A stretch of 64,000 nt of DNA. It comes from a virus. Its lineage: Duplodnaviria > Heunggongvirae > Uroviricota > Caudoviricetes. Of the stretch, positions 3,898-62,965 are shown piece after piece. The number at the start of each line of letters is the position of its first letter. The first letter of the stretch is position 1. Below the pieces are notes generated by a model. It was not told where the DNA came from and did no database searches. It worked only from the letters and a program-made list of their open reading frames with translations. The stretch lies in IMG/VR virus record IMGVR_UViG_3300042154_004306, one strand, 5' to 3'. Both the position numbers and the translations under genes were made by a program.

Positions 3898-3999
3898 ATA
3901 ATTAGTAACTTTAAAGAAAAAAGTTATCTAGGACTGGGCTTCGATAATTCTTAGAGTGTTCGGCTAAAATAAATAAACCTGAAATAAATTACTCAATAA

Positions 4000-6066: not shown

Positions 6067-6105
6067 TCCTAACCTTTTACTCTCGATTTAGTATAATAAA
6101 CCAGT

Positions 6106-7972: not shown

Positions 7973-7985
7973 ATAAATAATCCAG

Positions 7986-9143
7986 ATGAAACTGTTTAAA
8001 TTCACCGAATTCATAAATGAGGGCCAATTCTACCAAGATCAATTGAATCCAATGGTCTGGGATGGAGAAGACCTTAACTCTGAGCTCAGAACCAAGCTTC
8101 TGCAAATTGCTCATGACTTCTATGAGGACCTAAAGGTTAGTGCTCCAATTGAAGATATTCAACTTACTGGATCCCTAGCTAATTATAACTGGACAAAGTA
8201 CTCTGACTTTGACGTGCATATTATCATGGATCTTTCCAAGATAAACAAGGACGTTGAGCTCGTGAAGATTGCAATGGAAGGTTTAAAGACCGTGTGGAAT
8301 CAACGCCATCCAGTAAATATTGAAGGATACGATGTTGAACTGTACGCACAGGACGTAAATCAATTACATTTGGCATCAGGTCTCTATTCTCTACTAAAGG
8401 GAGAATGGCTTAGAAAACCTGCGTATAATCCGCCTAGTGTTGATCCAAAAGACGTTCAGCTAAAATCTGACCATTACATCTATGCAATCAAGCAAATGAT
8501 TGACGAGATTCAAGAGGCTGGCCCGGAAGAGGCTCGTGATATTATGGAACGTGCCTCCGTTCTAAAGAAAAAGATCTCAAGATCAAGAGACGAACAGCTT
8601 GCGAATAAGGGCGGAGAGTTCTCGGTTGAGAATCTAGTATTTAAGAGATTACGTAATGAAGGCTGGATCGGAAAGTTAATTGACCTAAAGTCTCAAGCCT
8701 ATTCACATATTTATTCTGAACCCTCAAATGCAGTTGACTCTAAGTTCTCTACTGAAACTGATGTAGTAGACGAATCCGTTTCTTTCGGTAAGGGTAATAC
8801 GGTTGTTGTCATGGGTCCCAATGTTGAGGGAGGTCGCAGACTTTTCGTATTCTATATTGATTGGGCTAGAGAAGTTGAAAGAGCTGGTCGTTTGGTGCAA
8901 ATGGTTGGACTAGCTTCACCGATGATGATTCGTCAGGAGAATGGAAATCTGATTGCAAAACCGGTAATGTTCGATCCTCAAACTCTACAGAAATACGCTG
9001 GCCTTAGCGATTACCAAGTTGTTCTAAATTCAAAAACCAAAACTCCATTCTGGTTCGAGACCGTTAAGTTCTCAAATCATATCCCAATGCTTAGAGCATT
9101 AAGCAACCAGTTAATGGGAATTCCTGGAGTTAAGATACCTTAA
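7986..9143 (+). CDS. hypothetical protein with leader MKLFKFTEFINEGQ
   Basis: 385 aa. Leader family; ATAAATAA at 7973-7980. Confidence 0.6.
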   Translation: MKLFKFTEFINEGQFYQDQLNPMVWDGEDLNSELRTKLLQIAHDFYEDLKVSAPIEDIQLTGSLANYNWTKYSDFDVHIIMDLSKINKDVELVKIAMEGLKTVWNQRHPVNIEGYDVELYAQDVNQLHLASGLYSLLKGEWLRKPAYNPPSVDPKDVQLKSDHYIYAIKQMIDEIQEAGPEEARDIMERASVLKKKISRSRDEQLANKGGEFSVENLVFKRLRNEGWIGKLIDLKSQAYSHIYSEPSNAVDSKFSTETDVVDESVSFGKGNTVVVMGPNVEGGRRLFVFYIDWAREVERAGRLVQMVGLASPMMIRQENGNLIAKPVMFDPQTLQKYAGLSDYQVVLNSKTKTPFWFETVKFSNHIPMLRALSNQLMGIPGVKIP

Positions 9144-9163
9144 TTTTATAGTATAATAACATT

Positions 9164-19470: not shown

Positions 19471-20295
19471 TTATTTTAATAGAGCGTAATACTCTTTAAA
19501 GTGTTTCAAACGATCAGCCAATCCGATAGTTCCTCCATTTACTCTCTTTGTCACTGATGTAACAGTAGCATCATCTGAACCTTTATCGCATACAGCCCAT
19601 AATCCATTCTTGTTGAAGAAGAATGCTGCGGATGCTAATGGATATTTTGTAGCTACTAGATCTGGGTTTGCCAAGATATCGTCTTCTACTGCTGCATCAA
19701 ATGCTTTGTAGTTGTCTTTACCGGTTAACTGGATGTATCCACGACCTCTATGTTTCCAACCATCGCCTGATGCTTCGTTTCCATTACCCATTCTTGATGA
19801 GTACACGGTGTTTGCAATTTTTTCAGGGTTACGAGCACTACCTGCAGCTGTTGCAGAATTAAAATACTTTCCAAATATCTTAACTAATCCATCTGCCGAA
19901 TAGTTTAAATTTTCAGATACAGCTTTGAATCCAGCTGATTCATGACCGCATTGTGCCAAGAAATGAGCTAAACGCAATGGGGTTGTAATGTTGAATTTAG
20001 CGGCTGTGTCCGGGATTTGTGCAATAACTGCGTCAGGAATATGACCTTTTAGATTAGCTAGTTTAAAGTTTGAAGCTGGGATTGCAACTGGGGTTGCTGC
20101 TTGAGCTGGGGCTGCTCCCATTAATTTTGACCAAGAGGCTGGGCCGACAATACCATCAGCAGATAGGCCGTTAGCCGCTTGCCATTCTTTTACCTTAGCC
20201 TCAGTGCCTGGTCCAAATTGACCGTCTGCTGTAAGACCAAGTTTTTCCTGAAGCTGTTTAACTTCAGCTCCTGAAGATCCATTTTTTAGTAACAT
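19471..20295 (-). CDS. endolysin: two PG_binding_1 repeats + glycoside hydrolase family 19 domain
   Basis: 274 aa. Two LxxxGxxxDGxFGxxT peptidoglycan-binding repeats. GH19 motifs AQCGHESAGF and GRGYIQLTGKDNY. Only minus-strand gene in the window. Confidence 0.8.
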   Translation of the reverse strand: MLLKNGSSGAEVKQLQEKLGLTADGQFGPGTEAKVKEWQAANGLSADGIVGPASWSKLMGAAPAQAATPVAIPASNFKLANLKGHIPDAVIAQIPDTAAKFNITTPLRLAHFLAQCGHESAGFKAVSENLNYSADGLVKIFGKYFNSATAAGSARNPEKIANTVYSSRMGNGNEASGDGWKHRGRGYIQLTGKDNYKAFDAAVEDDILANPDLVATKYPLASAAFFFNKNGLWAVCDKGSDDATVTSVTKRVNGGTIGLADRLKHFKEYYALLK

Positions 20296-20329
20296 AAGTA
20301 TGATTTTTTTTGTTATTTATTAGAACCGC

Positions 20330-20734
20330 ATGGACCTAACCGGTCTAATAAATAAACCCGGTATGAGCCCCTACATTAATAAGCGAAGCGCAAGTCTTCT
20401 TCTCAATTGGTGTAAAGAAAAATACGGACCAAGTCATTATCAAAACATTAAGACTCTAAAAATTAGATTAGATTTAACGCTTGATAGTCTAGGTCAATAT
20501 TTTCCTTATCCTAACGAGATTGTGATTAATCCAAAGAACCATCGCTCTCTATTAGAATGGTGTGGGACGGTGATTCATGAATACACTCATTTTACTCAGG
20601 ACATGTGCAAGTACCTAGAATATCGAAACAGTTACGAGAACCATCCCTATGAGATAACATGCAATAATCGAGCTAAAAGAGATAAACTTGAGGCTCGTAG
20701 ATTCGTTCTAGGGAAACTTCGACCTAAAAAGTAG
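20330..20734 (+). CDS. hypothetical protein with HExxH motif
   Basis: 134 aa. VIHEYTHF (HExxH). Confidence 0.35.
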   Translation: MDLTGLINKPGMSPYINKRSASLLLNWCKEKYGPSHYQNIKTLKIRLDLTLDSLGQYFPYPNEIVINPKNHRSLLEWCGTVIHEYTHFTQDMCKYLEYRNSYENHPYEITCNNRAKRDKLEARRFVLGKLRPKK

Positions 20735-20776
20735 TATAATAAATATCAATATCTTTAAAATAAAAAACAAATAAAC

Positions 20777-21595: not shown

Positions 21596-22278
21596 TGCAA
21601 ATAACTTTCATATCTGACACTCACTGGCTGGTGAGAGACGCTCAAGCCTGTAGAGACATGAATGATCTCCTACCCGGCGGCCCAATCTTGGTGCACGCAG
21701 GGGATGTGAGCGGCAGAGGCACTGAATTTGAGATCAGAAAGTTTCTTGACTGGTTTAGTAAGTTGCCGTACACGCATAAAATCTTAATCTCAGGCAATCA
21801 TGACTTCTTTTTTGAAGTTGCCAAACCTGAGGAGGTTGAGGCCTTGATTGCAGAGTATCCTGGAATTACCTATCTAAACGATAGCGAAGTAACCGTTGAG
21901 GGCATAACGTTTTGGGGAAGCCCAATCACTCCGTTCTTTCATAATTGGGCATTCAATCGATATTCGGATGAAATTAAACCGCATTGGGACCTGATTCCAG
22001 AAGGAATTGATGTCCTGATAACTCACGGTCCACCAAAAGGAATACTTGATTTTACCGAGTATGATCGTGACCATGTTGGCTGCCCAACTCTATTGGAGAA
22101 GGTTAAACAGATAAAACCCAAAGTTCATGTCTTTGGCCACATTCATGAGGCTAGAGGTAAGGAAGAAATTGATGGAACAATTTTCATCAATGCCTCAATG
22201 GTTACTCTAAAATATGAGTTACGATATGAACCTCCATACATAATAGAAATTGAACCAAATTCTCAAAATTTAGTATAA
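21595..22278 (+). CDS. calcineurin-like metallophosphoesterase
   Basis: 227 aa. GDVSGRG, GNHDF and GHIHE motifs. Confidence 0.7.
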   Translation: MQITFISDTHWLVRDAQACRDMNDLLPGGPILVHAGDVSGRGTEFEIRKFLDWFSKLPYTHKILISGNHDFFFEVAKPEEVEALIAEYPGITYLNDSEVTVEGITFWGSPITPFFHNWAFNRYSDEIKPHWDLIPEGIDVLITHGPPKGILDFTEYDRDHVGCPTLLEKVKQIKPKVHVFGHIHEARGKEEIDGTIFINASMVTLKYELRYEPPYIIEIEPNSQNLV

Positions 22279-22285
22279 TAACCGT

Positions 22286-25709: not shown

Positions 25710-26005
25710 TTAGAGGTTCAGAACAAAATCGAAAACAAAGGGACATTGAACTTGCACGACTTGTTGAAGAGTTCACAGAAAAGCTGAAGTATGATCCATA
25801 TCGGCCGGGTATGGTACACCCAGAAGTTTATCCTGATGATTTACAGGAGGTAATTGAGGATCTTTTCTTTGTTAGAGGATTCTCCGAGGCAACCGTCAAG
25901 GTCAGTAAGAATCCTGACGGAATGTCAATTCAGGTTCAAGTTTTAAACCGGGGCGGAATAAATAATAAAAATTCCGCAATATCGGATGAAACTAAAGAAA
26001 TTTAA
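25697..26005 (+). CDS. hypothetical protein
   Basis: 102 aa ORF. Confidence 0.4.
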   Translation: MLEMIRGSEQNRKQRDIELARLVEEFTEKLKYDPYRPGMVHPEVYPDDLQEVIEDLFFVRGFSEATVKVSKNPDGMSIQVQVLNRGGINNKNSAISDETKEI

Positions 26006-26510: not shown

Positions 26511-26546
26511 TCATCAAATAAATAACCTAAAATTACACGAATCTAC

Positions 26547-27120: not shown

Positions 27121-27600
27121 ATGATTAAGTCACTAGTTCAAAGTTTCAATGAGTACACACTCAACGAGGCCAAATCAAGTCACCCAGCTAAATACAAAGC
27201 GCCCGAGGGTAGTTCCCGAGATGCCAAGCTCGATAAGGCCCAGGCCCTATTGAAAGCTGGCAAAAAGGATCAAGCTTACAAGTTGCGTGATGATATGGAA
27301 AAGAAGGAACGATCTAAACCGGATTGGAAGAACACTCCTCGCAAGGATTCACAAGTTGATGAAGCTAAAAAGGCGGGTAAGAACTTAAGCAAGGAAACTC
27401 TTGCAAAGATTAGAGCGGTTGCGACCAAAAAAGGTTACTCATTCGCCGATCTTAAAGGAGAATACGTTAAGGGTCTAGGCGCTTTCTACTCTTCAGGTTC
27501 AAGACCTGGAATGACTGCTCATCAATGGGCAATGGCAAGAGTAAATTCAGCGTCTCCTAGTAAATCTTGGGCAAATGTAAAAAAGGTTGGAAAAAAATAA
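27121..27600 (+). CDS. small basic (Lys-rich) protein with leader MIKSLVQSFNEYTLNEA; internal-protein-like
   Basis: 159 aa, highly basic, resembles T4 internal proteins in size and charge. Confidence 0.55.
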   Translation: MIKSLVQSFNEYTLNEAKSSHPAKYKAPEGSSRDAKLDKAQALLKAGKKDQAYKLRDDMEKKERSKPDWKNTPRKDSQVDEAKKAGKNLSKETLAKIRAVATKKGYSFADLKGEYVKGLGAFYSSGSRPGMTAHQWAMARVNSASPSKSWANVKKVGKK

Positions 27601-31484: not shown

Positions 31485-31521
31485 CCGATTGAGAGTATAA
31501 TATAAAAAGACTCAATCTAAC

Positions 31522-33394: not shown

Positions 33395-33439
33395 CAGGCC
33401 CGGCGCTCTTCTAATAAATAATCGAAAGCACCCAGACAC

Positions 33440-34276
33440 ATGCCAACTCATAAACCGTATGCAATTAACCTAGGTTCAGCAATCACAGGTACTACTCAAA
33501 CTGGTAACTTTGCGGTTGGGACTGGGACACCAACCACAATCTGGTCAAATCGACCAGGCTCAGTTACTTGGTGGATGGGTCCGGACGAGGATGTTGGTTA
33601 CTTAATCGTGAAGCAAGATGGCGCAAATCCTTCTTTCTGGCGATCCACGGCTAAGACTGATCCAGCTTTTCTAAGTCTTGCTAATAATCTAGCTAGGCGA
33701 TTCGGTACAAGCCCATTTGCATCGGCCGCAGCTGCTTACACTTGGTTAACAACAAACGGCTATTACACGACGTTTCAGCCGTATGCGGCAGGTCTCTACA
33801 AGACCACTTTCTCTGGATACTTTGCCGATAACGTTAGTTTCTTTGCGACCGCGACTCCACAAGCATTCGGCGCAAATCAAGCAACCTCAGTACAAGCTAC
33901 GACTATTTCAGAACCTGCAACCAATGACGGTGAAGTATTTAGCTGTCAGTGGTTAGGCTATTTTAAACCGACGACCACTGAAACTTACACATTCTATACG
34001 TCAAGCGACGATGCATCTTACATGTGGATCGGTGCAAACGCTCAAACTGGATTCACAACAACAAATGCAACCGTTAATAATGGAAGTCTTCATGGAACGC
34101 AGGAGCGATCCGGCTCAATCGATTTAACTGCAGGTACGTATTACCCGGTTAGAATCCAATTTGGCGAAAACACTGGAGGAGACGTCATGACCTTTAATTA
34201 TTCTACTCCCAACATTGCCAAGACAACCACTGTCACAGGCCTAGTATTCTACAACACCACAACGAACGGCCATTAA
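33440..34276 (+). CDS. PA14-domain protein (carbohydrate-binding; putative virion adhesin)
   Basis: 278 aa. GEVFSCQWLGYFKPTTTETYTFYTSSDDASYMWIG ... GTYYPVRIQFGENTGG is a typical PA14 signature. Confidence 0.55.
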   Translation: MPTHKPYAINLGSAITGTTQTGNFAVGTGTPTTIWSNRPGSVTWWMGPDEDVGYLIVKQDGANPSFWRSTAKTDPAFLSLANNLARRFGTSPFASAAAAYTWLTTNGYYTTFQPYAAGLYKTTFSGYFADNVSFFATATPQAFGANQATSVQATTISEPATNDGEVFSCQWLGYFKPTTTETYTFYTSSDDASYMWIGANAQTGFTTTNATVNNGSLHGTQERSGSIDLTAGTYYPVRIQFGENTGGDVMTFNYSTPNIAKTTTVTGLVFYNTTTNGH

Positions 34277-34903: not shown

Positions 34904-34974
34904 TTAATGACCAGTTAACAATGATCAAGCCGGTACATGGAGTATGAAAAATCAATAAATAACAATAAAACGTT

Positions 34975-37155
34975 ATGAGAAAAATTACTCAACTTATGGT
35001 ATTGATGCTATCGATACTAACTATCCCCAAGTGTTTTGCACAAAGTGTAACAATCGGCCCAATCTCTGGTGCTTCGTCCTATCAAACAGGTCCCATCTAT
35101 CAAAGGGTTACCGCTCAGAGCTCAAATTATGCTAAGTCCGCTTATCTTTACACCAAAGATGAATTAAACATTCCCTCTGGATCAACCATTACAAAAGTTG
35201 AATGGTTAAAAGCAAATAATGCGACTGCTACCGGTAACAATAAATTCAAGGTTATCATTTCCAATACACCTAAAACAACAATGGGTGTATCTGCCAACTA
35301 TTCGGACTTTTTACAAAACTCACAAACAGTTTTCTCAACTGATAAACTAGGGTTACCAGCCACAACTAATTATTGGATACCTTGCCAATTCTCATCTGGG
35401 TTTATATATGAAGGTGGAAGCTTATCTATACTAACCGATTGGGCTAAAGCTGGAACATGTACTGGCCCATTAAACTTTTATCAAAAACCTTCTGTTGGAA
35501 AGTCTATGCAGGTAATCAGTCCAGCACTAATACCACAAGATGCTTTGCTACTACCAACATCTGGTTCGGTAAGACCCACAATTAGAATAACATACACAGC
35601 ACCTATTATGTGTTCCACGATGCCTAGTCCAGGCTTGGCTGTCTCTACGAATTCGGTTGTTTGTCCAAACCAACAATTCACACTTTCACTAACTAATAAA
35701 ATAGCCGAAGGTGGTATATCCTATGACTGGCAGAAATCAAATGCTTTATCTTTTGATAGCGCCGCTTCTATTGGTAATGGTTCATCAGTAATTACATCAC
35801 AAACAGCCGAGACATATTATAGATGTAAGGTTAGCTGTGGTAGTCTTGTTACTTGGACAAATATTATAAAAATACCAATTAACCCTTTTTACAATTGCTA
35901 TTGCCCAAGTACGGCTCAATCCCCAACAGATGAGGAAATAACACATTTCAAATTAGGTGATTTAGATAAAAAATCCAGTGTTGGTACTCCTGTTATATTT
36001 GGGGTTAGACCTGGAGACTGTGGTGATTTAGCACCCGGTGAAGGATCAAAAAAATCTTTATACTCAAACTATAGAGGGGATAAACCCACAGATATTAAAA
36101 TTGGTTCCACTGTTCCCTTTATTGTTGAAACATCATTATGTGGCACTAATGGAGCTTATAACCGTGCCGCTATTTTTATAGATGCTAACCGAAATGGTGA
36201 ATTTGAGGGTAGTGAACAAATTTATCTATCACCTGTTGTTTATGGTCCAACTGCCAGTGTTAGAAAAGGTTTTATTAAAATCCCTATCACATCACAACCA
36301 GGTATAACAGGAGTTAGAGTTATTGTGAACGAAACACAAAACGCAATTTCATCATGTGGATCTTATGCTTTTGGAGAAACTGAGGACTACACAATCAACT
36401 TAGTTAGCCATATTAACTGTGATTCTATTCCCACAATAGTAAGCTCTGATACTAAAGTTTGTAAAGGCAGTAGTTTATTACTTTACCCATCTATAACAGG
36501 TGATAGTTATCAATGGATTAAAAATGGTCAAGTGGTAAGTGGATCTACTGATTTTTTTTATGAACCAGTTGTATCTGAACCTACTACTTTTATTTGTAAA
36601 GTTAAATGTGGTGATGTATTAAAAGAAACAGAGTCAATTTTAATTGATTTAAATAAGTTTACTGATTGTTATTGTGAGTCTGGTGCTGGTGGTCAGGCTG
36701 ATGAAGAAATTATAGACTTCACGTTAAATGGAGTAAAGGTTGGTCTAGATTGTGGTAAACAAGCACCCGGTGCTAAATCCTACTTAAATGAATACTCAGA
36801 CTTTAAACCAAACGGTTCATTTACCGAACTAAAAAAGGGTAATACATACTCATTTGATATTTATGATAATGACTGTGATACACCAGCCTCGCCATATTAT
36901 ACAGCGTCAGTTGGTGGTTGGATAGACTTTAATCAAAATGGGGTGTTTGATAATAACGAAAAAATTCTACAAGTTGATGGTGTAACCGGACCTAAACACA
37001 TAACCGGAACCATAACAATACCATTAAATGCTATATCGGGGGTTACCTGTCTTAGATTAGTATTAGGTGGAGGTTTATATGGGGTTTACCTAACACCGTG
37101 TTCTAAATTTCAATCAGGTGAAACAGAAGATCACTTAGTTACAATAACCGATTAA
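34975..37155 (+). CDS. large secreted Cys-rich protein with two GEVED-like C-terminal-type modules
   Basis: 726 aa, signal peptide. Repeated module ending FGETEDYTINLV and QSGETEDHLVTITD (GEVED-like). CAATAAATAA at 34953-34962 upstream. Confidence 0.5.
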   Translation: MRKITQLMVLMLSILTIPKCFAQSVTIGPISGASSYQTGPIYQRVTAQSSNYAKSAYLYTKDELNIPSGSTITKVEWLKANNATATGNNKFKVIISNTPKTTMGVSANYSDFLQNSQTVFSTDKLGLPATTNYWIPCQFSSGFIYEGGSLSILTDWAKAGTCTGPLNFYQKPSVGKSMQVISPALIPQDALLLPTSGSVRPTIRITYTAPIMCSTMPSPGLAVSTNSVVCPNQQFTLSLTNKIAEGGISYDWQKSNALSFDSAASIGNGSSVITSQTAETYYRCKVSCGSLVTWTNIIKIPINPFYNCYCPSTAQSPTDEEITHFKLGDLDKKSSVGTPVIFGVRPGDCGDLAPGEGSKKSLYSNYRGDKPTDIKIGSTVPFIVETSLCGTNGAYNRAAIFIDANRNGEFEGSEQIYLSPVVYGPTASVRKGFIKIPITSQPGITGVRVIVNETQNAISSCGSYAFGETEDYTINLVSHINCDSIPTIVSSDTKVCKGSSLLLYPSITGDSYQWIKNGQVVSGSTDFFYEPVVSEPTTFICKVKCGDVLKETESILIDLNKFTDCYCESGAGGQADEEIIDFTLNGVKVGLDCGKQAPGAKSYLNEYSDFKPNGSFTELKKGNTYSFDIYDNDCDTPASPYYTASVGGWIDFNQNGVFDNNEKILQVDGVTGPKHITGTITIPLNAISGVTCLRLVLGGGLYGVYLTPCSKFQSGETEDHLVTITD

Positions 37156-43750: not shown

Positions 43751-43828
43751 GGTTTTTTATTGTTTATAACGGACACAGATATATTTCTGGTTTTCTTTTT
43801 AATATATACTTAAAAATAGTAAACGAAG

Positions 43829-44167
43829 ATGAAAGATTTAAAACACATAAAAAGATTTAACGAGTCAGAAGAAAACTTGAATATATCTGATGTTAGTAGT
43901 AGTAAAAATCAGCATTTACTTGTGGTTCATCATGAAAGTGGTGATGAAATACATTTTACTGTTATAGATTATTCATTATATCCACAGATTGATAAAATGA
44001 TAAATGATGGACTTAATACACAGAAACAAGTTGAAAATATGTTGAATATAATCTATAACAACACATTAGAACATTTGATGTGTCAAACTTATGTATTAGA
44101 AGACTACACTAAAATTGGAAAATATAACATAGTAAAATGTATTCATCTACCAGAGTTGGGTAGTTGA
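43829..44167 (+). CDS. hypothetical protein with shared N-terminal module MKDLKHIKRFNESEENLNISDV
   Basis: 112 aa. 5' region and first ~28 codons duplicated at 45016. Confidence 0.5.
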   Translation: MKDLKHIKRFNESEENLNISDVSSSKNQHLLVVHHESGDEIHFTVIDYSLYPQIDKMINDGLNTQKQVENMLNIIYNNTLEHLMCQTYVLEDYTKIGKYNIVKCIHLPELGS

Positions 44168-44940: not shown

Positions 44941-45015
44941 AATTTATTACGCCTAACGATACTCAGATATATTTAGGTTTTCTTTTTAATATATACACTA
45001 AAATAACATAAGAAG

Positions 45016-45327
45016 ATGAAAGATTTAACACACATAAGGAGATTTAATGAGTCAGAAGAAAACTTGAATATATCTGATGTTAGAAGTAGTAAATTAAACA
45101 TACATTATTTTATGGAACAACTTTCAATTGATGATATAAGAAAATCTATTGAAGATAATTTACATTACCAAAAAACAGGTAAAAGATTATTTGATAGGAC
45201 TATACAAGACGAAATATACGAAATATACTTTAGTGGATTAGGTGAAAGTAAATCTACTATGATGTTTGAGTCGTATGATATTATATGTAGGGAACTTTCT
45301 AAGAGGTGGTTTTTGGGTAATGTTTAA
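45016..45327 (+). CDS. hypothetical protein with shared N-terminal module MKDLTHIRRFNESEENLNISDV
   Basis: 103 aa; N-terminal module paralogous to 43829, C-terminal body unrelated. Confidence 0.5.
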   Translation: MKDLTHIRRFNESEENLNISDVRSSKLNIHYFMEQLSIDDIRKSIEDNLHYQKTGKRLFDRTIQDEIYEIYFSGLGESKSTMMFESYDIICRELSKRWFLGNV

Positions 45328-54223: not shown

Positions 54224-55789
54224 ATGAGAATCATTAAATCTTACTCAGAATTCATTACTGAAAATTTAAACAATGAAGGCTTAGGCGAACTTGGTAAAAA
54301 GGCAATTGGTGCAGTTAAAGGCTTTCTTGGAAAAGCCGGCGGTTTCTTAAGTGCTTTAAAAGCCCAAATGAGCGGCAAGCGATCAGAAAACGGTGCAGAT
54401 GGTACTATTCCGTATGGCGTAACTATCATTCCATCGGCAGCCGATGCACAGGCACTTGATATTACGGAAATGCCACAAATCACAAGAGATGGGGAATCTG
54501 ATTCTGCAGATGTTGATGAAGCTGTGGTTCCATTGGACTTTCCAAATGTGAAGGCTGGTGTTATAAATGTGGGAGCTGAGAGACTATTAAGAATTATCAA
54601 CAGAGTCCTTAAAAACAAGGACGAACGTCCGATAATGATATGGGGAGCACCAGGTATTGGTAAAACATCAGTCGTTAAAGCGGTTCAAAAACAATACGGA
54701 GGCCGTATGATTGATGTACAGTTGACAACCTATGCACCAGAAGATTTCTTCTTACCTGAAGTAGAAGGTTCAACTTCACAGCAGGGCCGATATTCACGTA
54801 GAGCAGGTCGTGTTCCACAGGGCTGGTTACCGGTTTATCACGAGTCTGAAGGTCAAGAAGGTAATGATAAAGCAAACGGCCCAGATGGAAAGGGCGGAAT
54901 TATCTTCTTAGACGAATTATCAAGAGCTAAAGAGGCAATCCGTAATATTTGTTTGAAACTTGTACTCGATAGAGAAATGGATGGAGGTTGGAAATTAGGT
55001 AGCAACTGGACGATCATTGCTGCCTCTAACCGAATGGAAGACGATGAAACTAATACATCCGAATTTGGTTCTGCCCTAGGTAATCGTTTCCAACAGGTAA
55101 ACTATTCACCATCCATTAAAGATTACAGTAAGTATGCACTTTCTGCAAAAAGTGAAACTGGCGAAGACCTATTTGATCCACGTATTATTTCATTTTTGAA
55201 CTGGACAAAAGGTCAAGACTTTTTTCACAAATACGATCCAGACGTCTCTGGTACTATTTTCCCAAGCCCACGTTCATGGGAAGCGGCTGCCATTGCTTTG
55301 AAAAATCTTAAGAGGGAATCTGCTGAGTCTGGCATGACACTAACTCCAGAAATTATTGAAAACGAAGCAATTGCACCAAATGTAGGTAAAGAAGCTGCAA
55401 GCATGTTCATGGGTTACTATGCACTATCTCAAAAGATCGACCTTGATAAAATGAATTTGGTGTACTCTGATCCAATGAATGCACCGTTACCTCCTAAATC
55501 AAGAGGTAGTAATGATTACGAAATCGATTCAGCATACATCCTTGCATCAGCAATTGCATACGAATACCGGGACAGAGATCTAACTGATCAGGAAATTGAC
55601 AACTTATTTGAGTATATTATTAGAGTCGGCGATCCAACTGTTGCGATTCAAATTCTATCAGCAGTTAGAGAGAACCAGCCAAATGTCGCAAAAAATACTT
55701 ATCCAGCAACTGTTGCTGGACTTAAAAAATTCTTGGCTGCATATCCTGGTTCAACTAGAGAAATTCAAGCCGCAAATCTTAATCCATAA
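54224..55789 (+). CDS. MoxR-like AAA+ ATPase carrying the family leader MRIIKSYSEFITEN
   Basis: 521 aa. Walker A IWGAPGIGKTSVVKAV, Walker B IIFLDELSRA; AATAAATAA at 54193-54201. Confidence 0.75.
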   Translation: MRIIKSYSEFITENLNNEGLGELGKKAIGAVKGFLGKAGGFLSALKAQMSGKRSENGADGTIPYGVTIIPSAADAQALDITEMPQITRDGESDSADVDEAVVPLDFPNVKAGVINVGAERLLRIINRVLKNKDERPIMIWGAPGIGKTSVVKAVQKQYGGRMIDVQLTTYAPEDFFLPEVEGSTSQQGRYSRRAGRVPQGWLPVYHESEGQEGNDKANGPDGKGGIIFLDELSRAKEAIRNICLKLVLDREMDGGWKLGSNWTIIAASNRMEDDETNTSEFGSALGNRFQQVNYSPSIKDYSKYALSAKSETGEDLFDPRIISFLNWTKGQDFFHKYDPDVSGTIFPSPRSWEAAAIALKNLKRESAESGMTLTPEIIENEAIAPNVGKEAASMFMGYYALSQKIDLDKMNLVYSDPMNAPLPPKSRGSNDYEIDSAYILASAIAYEYRDRDLTDQEIDNLFEYIIRVGDPTVAIQILSAVRENQPNVAKNTYPATVAGLKKFLAAYPGSTREIQAANLNP

Positions 55790-56523
55790 TGAAAAGACTC
55801 CTAGACTGGAATAGTTTTAACCAATACAGCCAATTCTCTAAATCCAATCTAGTTTTAGAGAATCAAATGGATGATCCAAATTCTAAGATAACTAGAATTA
55901 AAGTATCCTATGCATTTCAAGTCTTAACTGGTAGATACCGCTTTTTTGCAGAGCTTGCCTATAAACTCAAAATCGTTTATACAAGACACCCGCAAATTCA
56001 AACTGCTGCGGTTGACGGCGTCCACCTATTCATTAATCCTGATTTCTTTGCTCCACTGACTGAAAAACAAATAGTCTTTATCTTGTGCCATGAAGTTTTG
56101 CACTGTGCACTTCTACACTTTGCTAGAATGGAGGGCAGAGATCCTGAAAAATGGAATATCGCAGGCGACTATGAGATTAACTTAATGTTAGCGGATGACG
56201 GTATTATCTCAAAAGCAGAAATTGCAAATGACCTTCGAGGTCTAATAGACGATAAGTATAAGGGCCTGAATGCAGAACAAATATACGTAGAAGTTGAATC
56301 TGCTCCGAAGCCAAAGAAAAAGCCGGGTAACGGTGGAAGCGGTGGAAAAGAAGGAGGTTTAGGTCCAAGTGGAGGTCAAGAGCAACCTCTCTCAGTTGGA
56401 GACATTATTAGAAATGAAAGAACTGGTGGATATGGCGTAGTTACTAGCATAAATGAAGCAACTGGAGAAGTTGATTATGATCCAGTCGATAAAGAAGAAG
56501 CAATTAAAATAGTAAACGGATAA
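55789..56523 (+). CDS. HExxH protein resembling the N-terminal putative metallopeptidase module of DUF2201/VWA-partner proteins
   Basis: 244 aa. FILCHEVLHCALLHF (HExxH); Gly-rich C-terminus. Confidence 0.45.
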   Translation: MKRLLDWNSFNQYSQFSKSNLVLENQMDDPNSKITRIKVSYAFQVLTGRYRFFAELAYKLKIVYTRHPQIQTAAVDGVHLFINPDFFAPLTEKQIVFILCHEVLHCALLHFARMEGRDPEKWNIAGDYEINLMLADDGIISKAEIANDLRGLIDDKYKGLNAEQIYVEVESAPKPKKKPGNGGSGGKEGGLGPSGGQEQPLSVGDIIRNERTGGYGVVTSINEATGEVDYDPVDKEEAIKIVNG

Positions 56524-57602
56524 TGAGAGCAAGTTTAGATGAAATAGTAAAGATAACGAAACCTGGCCAGGGCGGAGGTTCCGGTTCGGATCAGCCAGAT
56601 CAACAGCCCCGACAAAAAACTGATTCACTTGGAGATAAAAAACCTGGCGAAGATCAGGACGGCGGTTCTAGTTCGGATCAGCCAAAAACCGATTCACTTG
56701 GAGACAAAAAACCAGGCGAAGATCAGGACGGCGAAAGCAGCGGTTCAAGTAGCAGTTCAAGTAAAGGCCCAATGGTAAAGACTGAAGATTTTTCAGACGA
56801 TGCACAGGTTACGGTAGTTAGAGGCCCAATGACTGGTGAAGTAATTTCTAAGGAACATGGTAGGCAAATTGCCGGTGAAGAAGGCGTCGAAGGCGGCCGT
56901 GCTATGTCTGACCAGGATTGGAAAGACTTGGGTCGCAAGCTTGCACAAACACATCTCAGTCCAAGATCAAAGAGTAAGGGTTCAGGTAGGGGTGCAATCT
57001 ATCAACGAATCATGGAGCTAACAGAGCCAAAGGTAAACTGGAGACAAGAGCTTAAACGATTCATTGGCAGACTAGCTTCATCAAGTTCTTTTAAATTGCC
57101 TAACCGTCGACACATATCGGCCGGTCAATATCGATACGGTTTAGAGGATACTGATAATGCACTAGATAATGCAGCCGTTGCACTAGACGTTAGTGGTTCA
57201 ATAGCAAACTCCTTTCCAGAATTGGCAGCAGAAGTAGTCGGTATTGTTAAAGCCAAAAAGATCAAGACTGTTTCAATACTACCTTTTGCCAATACAGTAG
57301 TTGATCCATTCCAAATTAGAGGTTTCAAAAAACCCACACCTGATGACTTTGCAAAAGTTAGAACTGGCGGAGGTACTGAAGCAATCCCGGATGTAATTGA
57401 CTGGATTGATACAAATCTAAAGGGCAAGATTGATTTTGTAGTAATCATGACAGATGGTCATTTAACAAATGCGCTACCGCCTGCTCCTAAAAATTGGGGT
57501 AAAAAGACTCTATGGTTAGTATTTGATAATCCAGGTTTTGATGTACCTTCAGATTGGGGCCGAATCATTCATGCAAATGGAGATAAAGGCTATTGGAACT
57601 AA
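56523..57602 (+). CDS. von Willebrand factor A domain protein with repetitive acidic N-terminus
   Basis: 359 aa. MIDAS ALDVSGSIANSF; N-terminal tandem TDSLGDKKPGEDQDG repeats. Confidence 0.65.
   Translation: MRASLDEIVKITKPGQGGGSGSDQPDQQPRQKTDSLGDKKPGEDQDGGSSSDQPKTDSLGDKKPGEDQDGESSGSSSSSSKGPMVKTEDFSDDAQVTVVRGPMTGEVISKEHGRQIAGEEGVEGGRAMSDQDWKDLGRKLAQTHLSPRSKSKGSGRGAIYQRIMELTEPKVNWRQELKRFIGRLASSSSFKLPNRRHISAGQYRYGLEDTDNALDNAAVALDVSGSIANSFPELAAEVVGIVKAKKIKTVSILPFANTVVDPFQIRGFKKPTPDDFAKVRTGGGTEAIPDVIDWIDTNLKGKIDFVVIMTDGHLTNALPPAPKNWGKKTLWLVFDNPGFDVPSDWGRIIHANGDKGYWN
56577..56732 (+). repeat. imperfect tandem duplication (~69-87 bp unit) inside the vWA gene
   Basis: ggttcCGgttcggatcagcca ... tgattcacttggagaTaaaaaacctggcgaagatcaggacggc repeated with an 18-nt deletion in copy 2. 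Confidence 0.7.
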
Positions 57603-57629
57603 GATAAAGTAAATAACATATATAACCAA

Positions 57630-57667
57630 AGGCTTAGACTAACGTTTAAGCCTTTTTTGTTTTTGGT
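57630..57667 (+). terminator. rho-independent terminator
   Basis: aaaggcttagactaacgtttaagcctttttt. Confidence 0.6.
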
Positions 57668-59905: not shown

Positions 59906-60331
59906 ATGAAAAGAGAATTTGTACCCTACGAACAAGCATTAGCTTTAAAAGAATTAGGATTTGATGAACCTTGTTTTGGGTATTACAATGTCAGCAACCA
60001 AGAACTAATAGAAGACTTATCAAATAATAGAACAGGAAATGATGATTCGAGATGGGCATCAGCACCACTCTACCAACAAGCATTTAGATGGTTTAGAGAG
60101 AAGTATAATATATCCTACAGTATTGATTGGATGAGTAGAAGTTCAGAATTTTATAATGGGTATTATGTTCATTTTAGAGGGATTAATGATAATAAAATTA
60201 ATCAAGAAAATTTTATAGTGTTGAATGATGAATTACCATCTAAAGGATATAAAGTTTATAAAACCTACGAAGAAGCAGAACTTGAATGTTTGATTAAGTT
60301 AATAGAAATAGTTAAAAACAATAACAAATGA
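59906..60331 (+). CDS. hypothetical protein, GFDEPC family (paralog 3)
   Basis: 141 aa; KELGFDEPCFGYYN ... SAPLYQQAFRWFREKY ... YKTYEEAELECL. Confidence 0.5.
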   Translation: MKREFVPYEQALALKELGFDEPCFGYYNVSNQELIEDLSNNRTGNDDSRWASAPLYQQAFRWFREKYNISYSIDWMSRSSEFYNGYYVHFRGINDNKINQENFIVLNDELPSKGYKVYKTYEEAELECLIKLIEIVKNNNK

Positions 60332-62895: not shown

Positions 62896-62965
62896 CAATT
62901 AGCCTAGAGCGAGGCTCAAATTGTTCCGATACCCCAGATAAATAAATTCAAATTATTTCACTAAA

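Follow-up and report, generated by a model that had tools for sequence, protein, structure and literature searches.

A 64,000-nucleotide (nt) stretch of tailed-phage DNA (hereafter the window; Caudoviricetes, IMG/VR record IMGVR_UViG_3300042154_004306) carries an operon in which a MoxR-class AAA+ ATPase with a tagged 99-residue N-terminal extension is followed by two open reading frames (ORFs), a stand-alone zinc metallopeptidase (ORF2) and a von Willebrand factor A (vWA) protein (ORF3). The protein identities, the division of the peptidase–vWA cofactor into two genes, the operon, and the conservation of tag and extension are in our judgement virtually certain. The best overall explanation, in which we place about even confidence, is that the genes encode a chaperone/processing system for late morphogenesis, to which a cleavable propeptide would recruit the ATPase. 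New here are the old fission with its beta domain, the conserved tagged 99-residue extension, and the association of an ATAAATA motif with the tag together with the morphogenesis neighbours of the system in relatives.

A MoxR-class ATPase with a peptidase and a vWA partner

The window's ORF list holds the three genes on the plus strand (Table 1), and the start codons of ORF2 and ORF3 each overlap the stop codon of the preceding gene (TAATG), so that both gene junctions have the same form. With an ATAAATA promoter-like motif in front and a terminator-like hairpin behind, the three translationally coupled genes make up a predicted self-contained transcription unit.

The ATPase scored 37.9 bits against Pfam AAA_5 (cutoff 22) and matched the phage family phrog_1297 ("ATPase") with an E value of 5e-52. 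Conservation was assessed in an alignment of 89 homologs, in which the Walker A and Walker B motifs are invariant, as are N269/R270, R288 and R350, candidate sensor or arginine-finger residues. The modelled fold is nearest to MoxR, dynein or midasin modules, with CbbQ and NorQ as the closest solved folds. Because fold and profile agree, the label "MoxR-like", which the earlier note had given to this protein along with intact Walker motifs, is justified. On family score, motifs, fold and the linked vWA partner, we assign it to the MoxR-class AAA+ ATPases; a hexamer is predicted. Single-sequence searches of the PDB with the ATPase and ORF3 returned no match, and the ATPase profile met only P-loop segments of Clp/Hsp100 proteins there. 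In NCBIfam, the ATPase matched at the P-loop level only, and ORF2 and ORF3 had no match.

These searches bear on the idea of a counter-defence or conflict module, in which the phage MoxR and vWA proteins would neutralize or mimic a host defence complex. MoxR–vWA systems are common in nucleoside triphosphate-dependent conflict systems, a link made in the literature (PMC7159879), and the ATPase weakly matched bpMoxR (PF20030). However, that score of 26.6 bits lies under the cutoff of 27, the operon contains neither a beta-propeller gene nor an effector partner, and PADLOC returned a single match, at the P-loop level, of the ATPase to DolB, whereas ORF2 and ORF3 gave nothing. Moreover, several phage groups conserve the pair as near-core genes, unlike a variable accessory. 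We therefore regard a counter-defence role as very improbable.

ORF2 matched DUF2201_N with an E value of 1.9e-29 (103.6 bits; profile positions 7–146 of 271), and its zinc-binding motif is invariant in 29 split-form homologs. It also resembled the minigluzincin selecase (MJ1213), with a profile E value of 9e-4 and a Foldseek probability of 1.0, and its core (residues 30–170) was modelled at a predicted local distance difference test score (pLDDT) of ~90. Thus, the HExxH protein has both the DUF2201_N and the peptidase similarity that its earlier description as the DUF2201 N-terminal module implies. The minigluzincins selecase and jannalysin share with ORF2 the core profile and fold and the HExxH with a downstream His; ORF2, by contrast, is twice as long, bears an additional beta domain at its C-terminus and works within an AAA+/vWA system.

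In ORF3, a hypervariable linker of acidic character is followed by the end of DUF2201_N (25.8 bits; profile positions 202–259) and then by a vWA-like domain with MIDAS. ORF3 scored 42.4 bits against Pfam DUF2201 (cutoff 26.4), and the MIDAS residues DVSGS (57186–57200), GGGT and TDG are all present, in agreement with the vWA/MIDAS partner that had been proposed.

Fission of the cofactor gene is old and conserved

The profile phrog_1314 spans both partner genes: ORF2 covers its positions 18–162 and ORF3 its positions 172–391, in different frames. What is usually one protein is thus split between two genes, as the first reading of the sequence had recognized. Consistently, the DUF2201_N and DUF2201 domains (PF13203 and PF09967) both score above threshold, on two polypeptides instead of one. 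The two-gene layout is always found in the window's clade (L003–L005, L012–L017), and the fused form is in the majority across the 90 loci that we surveyed, made up of the window, 10 loci used as context and 79 from IMG/VR. At the ORF2/ORF3 junction, the two genes overlap by 1 nt in the window and L003; in L004 they are 2 nt apart, and in L005 they are 4 nt apart and stand in a different frame relation. A sequencing error or programmed frameshift was rejected, since relatives have two ORFs with differing junctions and there is no slippery heptamer. More than 40 clusters, reaching down to 30% identity, consist of stand-alone peptidases of 237–281 residues, all with the C-terminal beta segment. 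We take the fission to be old and conserved, and new with respect to the pair described in other jumbo phages.

The beta domain of ORF2, which fused homologs lack, is kept down to 36% identity; G204, G213, Y215, G216, V218 and P232 are invariant or nearly so, and the split forms have in common the segment VGDIIxDxxxGxYGVVxSIDxxxGEVDYDPI. Its model has three strands and a helix (pLDDT ~80), and matches to KOW, Tudor and SH3 folds were weak. Independent splits without the beta domain occur in other clades (L010, L036, L051-53, L057, L062). A possible origin of the split by linker duplication, which would make the ORF2 tail homologous to the ORF3 N-terminal region, was unsupported (BLASTP E values of 0.33 for the window pair and 18 for L005).

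The linker of ORF3 is of low complexity and varies in length, with homologs of 336–449 residues. In the window it holds an imperfect tandem duplication, with DNA copies of 50 nt (56615–56664 and 56684–56733) that are 94% identical at 69-nt spacing and a second repeat pair at 56568–56597 and 56655–56684. Copy number was compared across relatives, as had been suggested: the repeat is double in the window and in relatives at 82–99% identity, with P0121 and P0122/L003 among the two-copy cases, and single in others (L004 and P0124). Only a short KTD[ST]LGD core of the linker repeat is conserved. The duplication noticed earlier is thus real, but the word "recently" fits it only in part, because it predates the split from relatives that are ~82–89% identical; such changes in copy number are ordinary for a linker as hypervariable as this one.

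The ATPase carries a conserved N-terminal extension

The first 99 residues of the ATPase comprise, in order, the tag, a helix, an I-P-x-G motif and an acidic linker. Within the tag, K5, S6, E9, F10, E13, N17 and E18 are conserved in the 89 homologs, together with G19, and a [LIV]-N-E-[GAS] motif after the tag is nearly universal. The tag has a pLDDT below 50 in the ATPase model and is therefore predicted to be flexible; the same prediction covers residues 1–32 and 87–99 as a whole. A cationic amphipathic helix follows at about residues 18–50 (hydrophobic moment 0.5–0.7, net charge +1 to +5) and is present in all clades. The motif I-P-x-G-V-x-I-x-P-S-x-x-D (residues 62–74) is modelled as packed on the core, and the extension ends in a disordered acidic linker whose last residues, V-D-E99, precede an Ala ([LVI]-[ND]-E99-A in homologs).

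More than 100 metagenomic homologs, with identities as low as 32%, conserve the extension, which was found in ~55 metagenomic loci and undetected in isolate phages. Searches of isolate-phage proteins recovered the ATPase in 670 records, mostly N4-like, at less than 30% identity and with alignments that begin at query residue 96 or later; short ATPase homologs start directly after position E99. Five conserved [LIVM]-x-E motifs were found in the whole ATPase in the non-redundant subset, three of them in the extension (residues 11–13, 16–18 and 97–99, all [LIV]-x-E), and only these three are followed by a small residue.

A phmmer search with the 99-residue extension against 1.84 billion representatives gave seven matches, among them two full-length members of the ATPase family (P0018, P0028) and one uncharacterised 67-residue protein (P0238). 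The other four were weak, multi-repeat matches to large proteins, two with a type IX secretion system (T9SS) sorting domain and one with PA14 and NPCBM, and were regarded as spurious. Behind these weak matches lies a clade-specific insert, RSENGADGT plus IPYGVTIIPS (54380–54500; ATPase residues 53–93). The repeats that it matched have the form SxNGCDSxxxLxLTVxPS and lie in large proteins, of which two are Bacteroidota T9SS-secreted proteins; the resemblance is probably spurious.

The tag is shared by unrelated genes of the genome

At least 10 window ORFs, encoding otherwise unrelated proteins, have the start M-[KR]-x-[IL]-K-x-[FY]-x-[EQ]-F-[ILV]-x-E. This start resembles the capsid targeting sequence (CTS) of phage T4, MKTYQEFIAE, found on internal proteins and Alt. 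With a pattern fixed a priori from that sequence, [EQ]F[IVL].E occurred in the first 17 residues of 6 of the 105 window ORFs, against 0.14 expected from the rate at internal positions, an enrichment of N-termini over internal positions of ~40-fold. The broader pattern gave 10 of 105 against 0.78 expected, a count that is partly circular because the pattern was drawn from the same N-termini. A MKTYQEFIAE-like motif common to unrelated proteins of one phage is therefore present, and the CTS-like leader that the ATPase had been said to share with putative injected proteins is borne out. Paralogous tags keep their amino acids despite many synonymous differences, which indicates selection on the peptide; a DNA-level repeat or translation-initiation artefact is unlikely, as synonymous sites vary and the peptide stays constant.

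Like the T4 CTS, the tag is short, has the form M-K-x-x-x-[EQ]-F-[ILV]-x-E, sits on unrelated proteins and ends on a Glu in [ILV]-x-E. Unlike it, the tag here is on far more genes and, on the ATPase, heads a 99-residue extension, whereas T4 propeptides have 10–19 residues; the function here is putative. The T4 CTS sequence and its cleavage after Glu are documented (PMC8442874, PMC9026906, PMC5694885). Prohead proteases of the T4 family cut after Glu in short motifs, and their propeptides often have several sites. In the ATPase, such motifs would read I-T-E13 before Asn and N-N-E18 before Gly, with [LIV]-N-E before Gly, Ala or Ser in homologs. The cleavage consensus of the T4 protease gp21 is L/I-x-E.

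Tags differ by genome: MIVRESxxFERGxDPxxxMGIG in L009, MKI[IV]RESL in L008, and MKTLYESIL..., MKDLKEYI.ES and MKTLYESILSSTKSGKD in L010. No Pfam family covers the variants of these three loci. The ATPase tag is nearer to the tags of unrelated genes in its own locus than to those of other loci (Wilcoxon p = 0.0015), a covariation that may partly reflect shared composition within a genome. In L010, tagged genes lie on both sides of the portal and S77 prohead protease genes. In T4, the genes at the corresponding place beside portal and protease are those of the core proteins gp67 and gp68. The same system is found in a 462-kb uncultured megaphage (LR756500.1; L090, 3138–7874), where a long extension (...LNEGLF...) precedes the ATPase at its N-terminus, the fused peptidase–vWA protein starts with MKYIKSYENFIFEN and a leucine-rich-repeat protein with MKYIQTYKDFLLEA. 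The tag thus reaches huge phages and the cofactor itself.

T4 uses such tags for internal proteins that are ejected, and this raises the alternative of a packaged and injected effector: the ATPase, loaded by the tag alone or with vWA-bound partners, would leave the capsid with the DNA and, early in infection, remodel or degrade proteins of the host. Effector-like proteins are among those tagged in the window (L,D-transpeptidase/Tlde1-like and nucleotidyltransferase-like), the leucine-rich-repeat and fused peptidase–vWA proteins of LR756500.1 are tagged too, and the MoxR ATPase p618, from Acidianus two-tailed virus (ATV), is a major virion component (PMC4124505). Yet a hexamer of ~58 kDa subunits would need to traverse the tail, ORF3 lacks the tag, and the pair is conserved across phages of very different hosts, which argues for a phage-internal client. 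An injected remodelling machine, one of the two roles offered by the earlier note, is thus plausible as far as the leader and the p618 precedent go, and we think it improbable.

Promoter motifs and neighbouring genes suggest late expression

The core of an ATAAATA motif begins 30 nt before the ATPase ATG, within a copy of AATAAATAA, and a second copy overlaps the stop codon of the upstream gene. The T4 late promoter reads TATAAATA, which ATAAATA resembles. The window has 13 copies of the 9-mer AATAAATAA, where 3.3 would be expected (4-fold), and ATAAATA shows a sharp spacing peak 20–31 nt before start codons. In the window, as in many relatives (among them L001, L003, L005, L008, L009 and L012–L018), ATAAATA is found 25–34 nt upstream of the start of the ATPase gene. 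The same motif and spacing precede the tail-sheath gene of L004, an operon with T4 gp13 (L091) and an endolysin-like gene of the window. Tagged genes stand behind ATAAATA more often than others (6 of 10 versus 9 of 95; Fisher p = 5e-4). We consider (A)ATAAATA(A) a candidate late-promoter class like T4 TATAAATA. A second motif, AGTATAATA, occurs 8 times against 1.1 expected, always on the plus strand, and is present in L091 too; the genes that it stands upstream of are untagged, the topoisomerase operon being one example and gene 31522 another, and it is probably a separate promoter class, early or middle. Sigma-70-type promoters were unenriched in the region (11 versus 11.9 expected).

The topoisomerase of the window is nearest to those of huge uncultured phages (55%), followed by XacN1 and RsoM2USA. 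Close ATPase homologs were found on contigs of freshwater-lake metagenomes, up to 270 kb long, that also encode T4-type gp32, UvsX/RecA, DnaB, PolB and tail sheath. A T4 gp13 gene lies ~9.7 kb past the window end, on a contig that also encodes a protein identical to one of the window; that contig is from the same phage or a near-identical one. In more distant relatives, the 10 kb around the ATPase contain genes for a T4 portal, a head-closure protein and a prohead protease of the S77 (gp21) type. The T4-type genes of close and distant relatives together place the lineage in the T4 superfamily of jumbo phages. At the DNA level, the 3.4-kb region had no match in 50,697 phage records.

Across the 90 loci, a vWA/MIDAS partner lies within 10 kb of the ATPase in nearly all, and a portal, S77 protease, head-closure protein or sheath in ~20, most clearly in L010; in L004, the ATPase gene comes immediately after the tail-sheath gene. 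A scan of IMG/VR for close relatives on long contigs, meant to connect the system with head genes, returned only contigs of up to 37 kb. The late-promoter-like motif, the sheath, portal and prohead-protease neighbours in relatives, and a published proposal for jumbo phages make a head-assembly chaperone, the other role that had been offered, plausible. We rate late expression together with a role in morphogenesis somewhat above even.

Relation to known systems

A MoxR ATPase with a metallopeptidase–vWA cochaperone has been described in group 2.2 (T4-like) jumbo phages, and the passages of Iyer et al. (2021; PMC7824862) on this pair propose that it takes part in assembling the virion and in peptidolytic processing, with ATV p618/p892 as the precedent. 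That pair consists of the same two families, encoded by adjacent genes in a T4-superfamily jumbo background. Here, by contrast, the cochaperone gene is split, its peptidase half has an extra beta domain, and the ATPase has a 99-residue tagged extension of which those passages make no mention.

N4-like phages have the corresponding pair (phrog_1297/phrog_1314; hidden Markov model E values of 5e-52, 8e-41 and 7e-31) in the same order, ATPase then cofactor. However, their ATPases have 335–405 residues without extension or tag, their cofactor is fused and identity is 25–29%. The N4-like gene adjoining the ATPase matches the vWA half in ORF3 and is often mis-annotated as "HNH endonuclease" ("vWA/HNH endonuclease"). 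Since the pair is known from both T4-like jumbo phages and N4-like phages, the triad itself is not new; the term slightly overstates the novelty of a known two-component system with one component split.

The cellular maturation systems CbbQ–CbbO and NorQ–NorD are likewise MoxR–vWA pairs, whereas here the partner carries a zinc peptidase, and the ATPase and ORF3 have no sequence-level match to any PDB chain. ATV p618/p892 (the latter a vWA protein) is a viral MoxR–vWA pair whose ATPase is in the virion and is implicated in its morphogenesis; the virus, however, is archaeal, and no peptidase or N-terminal propeptide is described for it.

Proposed mechanism and competing explanations

The cofactor, usually one protein with a minigluzincin-like zinc peptidase and a vWA/MIDAS part, is stably split in this lineage. 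By analogy with CbbQ–CbbO and NorQ–NorD, the MIDAS site would hold an acidic residue of the client, the ATPase hexamer would remodel the client and the peptidase would trim it. Most likely, the client would be a virion assembly intermediate, probably of the head. The 99-residue extension would most likely act as a recruiting propeptide, with its first 13–18 residues as the shared tag of the genome, like MKTYQEFIAE, and its three [LIV]-x-E motifs before small residues as sites of the kind that T4-type prohead proteases cut. Given the tag and these motifs, the ATPase would reach the prohead core and then be processed. Capsid targeting and cleavage of the ATPase we hold tentatively, at somewhat less than even confidence.

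Several observations weigh against this mechanism. In the model, extension residues 40–86 are packed on the AAA+ core, so a cut at E99 need not free them, and the cationic amphipathic helix is equally consistent with membrane binding. The tag is absent from ORF3 and degenerate on ORF2, and it is present on ~10% of window genes and on 14 of ~37 in L010, which is many for a capsid cargo signal. The operon adjoins a helicase gene and genes of unknown function, not head genes, in the window, L003 and L005, and the T4-type (S77) protease was seen only in the distant relatives L010, L036 and L080 and not in what was covered of this phage, for which T4 gp13 alone was reached. The short N4-like pair presumably belongs to an early/middle region and is not known to be a virion component.

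Part of this evidence fits a cytoplasmic system, in which the client would be a non-virion target (an enzyme of replication or nucleotide metabolism, or a host complex) and the tag a general module, for example for membrane or partner binding, expression or stability. The helicase next to the window operon, the helix behind the tag in all clades, the number of tagged genes, and the N4-like short homologs, which lack the extension and lie among hypothetical non-structural genes, all agree with it; so do the cellular MoxR–vWA pairs, which mature enzymes and, in CbbQ and NorQ, provide the closest solved folds. Against it, the promoter motif is common to sheath, gp13 and endolysin-like genes, relatives repeatedly place the system beside portal, protease or sheath genes, the tag is close to the T4 CTS, and conserved [LIV]-x-E sites before small residues occur in the extension only. 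We judge a cytoplasmic role unlikely, though a serious contender.

The MoxR–peptidase–vWA pair belongs to the near-core genes of N4-like phages and is frequent among T4-like jumbo phages, and the present version offers testable handles in a defined, putatively late operon, a natural peptidase/vWA fission and predicted cleavage sites at E13, E18 and E99. Were the tag a capsid-targeting propeptide, the T4 CTS principle would extend to a large uncultured group of jumbo phages, capsid cargo would be recognizable from sequence, and an AAA+ machine would be placed in the phage head. In a wider and more doubtful version, which we consider a possibility on the unlikely side, a whole clade of uncultured T4-superfamily jumbo phages would load dozens of proteins into the prohead by a cleavable genome-specific tag, among them the MoxR ATPase and sometimes its peptidase–vWA partner; an ATP-driven chaperone/protease would then act inside or from a phage capsid, as is thought for p618 in the archaeal virus ATV. 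If the tag is not a propeptide, it is still an unexplained, genome-covarying signal on ~10% of genes.

Features of the locus and the window

Table 1 Coordinates of features discussed in the text (window positions unless a locus is named).
Feature	Position	Strand	Description
ATPase gene	54224..55789	+	MoxR/dynein (AAA_5) clade AAA+ ATPase, 521 residues
N-terminal extension, residues 1-99	54224..54520	+	
N-terminal tag MRIIKSYSEFITENLNNE, residues 1-18	54224..54277	+	
Walker A GAPGIGKT, residues 141-148	54644..54667	+	G141, P143, G144, K147, T148 invariant in alignment A2
Walker B IIFLDE, residues 226-231	54899..54916	+	D230, E231 invariant
ORF2	55789..56523	+	stand-alone DUF2201_N zinc metallopeptidase, 244 residues
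Zinc-binding motif HEVLHCALLH	56089..56118	+	H101, E102, H105, H110
Small C-terminal beta domain of ORF2, VGDIIRNERTGGYGVVTSINEATGEVDYDPVDKEEAIKIVNG	56395..56520	+	only in split forms of the clade
ORF3	56523..57602	+	C-terminal half of DUF2201 protein, 359 residues
Imperfect tandem duplication in acidic linker, TDSLGDKKPGEDQDG x2	56568..56733	+	direct repeat families D1, D2
Terminator-like hairpin	57628..57665	+	12-bp stem and T-run, 26 nt past ORF3 stop codon; from terminator scan and sequence
AATAAATAA, late-promoter-like	54193..54201	+	before ATPase gene
AATAAATAA, second copy	54160-54168	+	
(A)ATAAATA(A) sites 12-31 nt before starts	467-475, 3968-3976, 7973-7979, 11236-11244, 14659-14665, 25957-25965, 26517-26525, 33413-33421, 34954-34962, 54193-54201, 62938-62944; 20313-20321	20313-20321 on minus	
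AGTATAATA sites	6090-6098, 9150-9158, 15417-15425, 20733-20741, 22272-22280, 31494-31502, 60102-60110, 63747-63755	+	
Tagged gene starts	480, 996, 3538, 4000, 7986, 25986, 26547, 27121, 52795, 53383		
Tagged nucleotidyltransferase-like gene	7986-9143		weak NTP_transf_2 and SidM_N matches; phrog_36119
Tagged gene with DUF5824	27121-27600		
L,D-transpeptidase/Tlde1-like gene	11266-12042		looser version of the tag
Endolysin-like gene	19471-20295	minus	PG_binding_1 and GH19; behind ATAAATA
PA14/GLEYA protein	33440-34276		behind ATAAATA
Secreted GEVED protein	34975-37155		behind ATAAATA
Tag-variant regions	L009 3509-14772; L010 2167-4918, 13667-20345; L008 11588-12669		many neighbouring genes

Several further features were observed. 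A full-length, ClpB/ClpA-like double-AAA+ protein of 659 residues is encoded a few kb downstream of the window in the same phage or in related ones (L091 8745–10724; L005 from 19970 onward); this second phage-borne AAA+ chaperone adjoins a PfkB kinase, with T4 gp13 further on. Two small paralogous genes of the window (43829–44167 and 45016–45327) start with MKDL[KT]HI[KR]RFNESEENLN and have nearly identical upstream regions (43780–43880 and 44967–45070). Both are within a low-GC stretch at ~40–48 kb (GC 0.29–0.32), and the arrangement resembles a gene cassette that was repeated within a plastic region. By eye only, a 413-residue ORF (15627–16868; start MKIKRINLVKLLEPKKFYDITVDDTHTFLI) appeared intein- or homing-endonuclease-like, and a 380-residue ORF (12986–14128) showed a membrane-transporter-like N-terminus.

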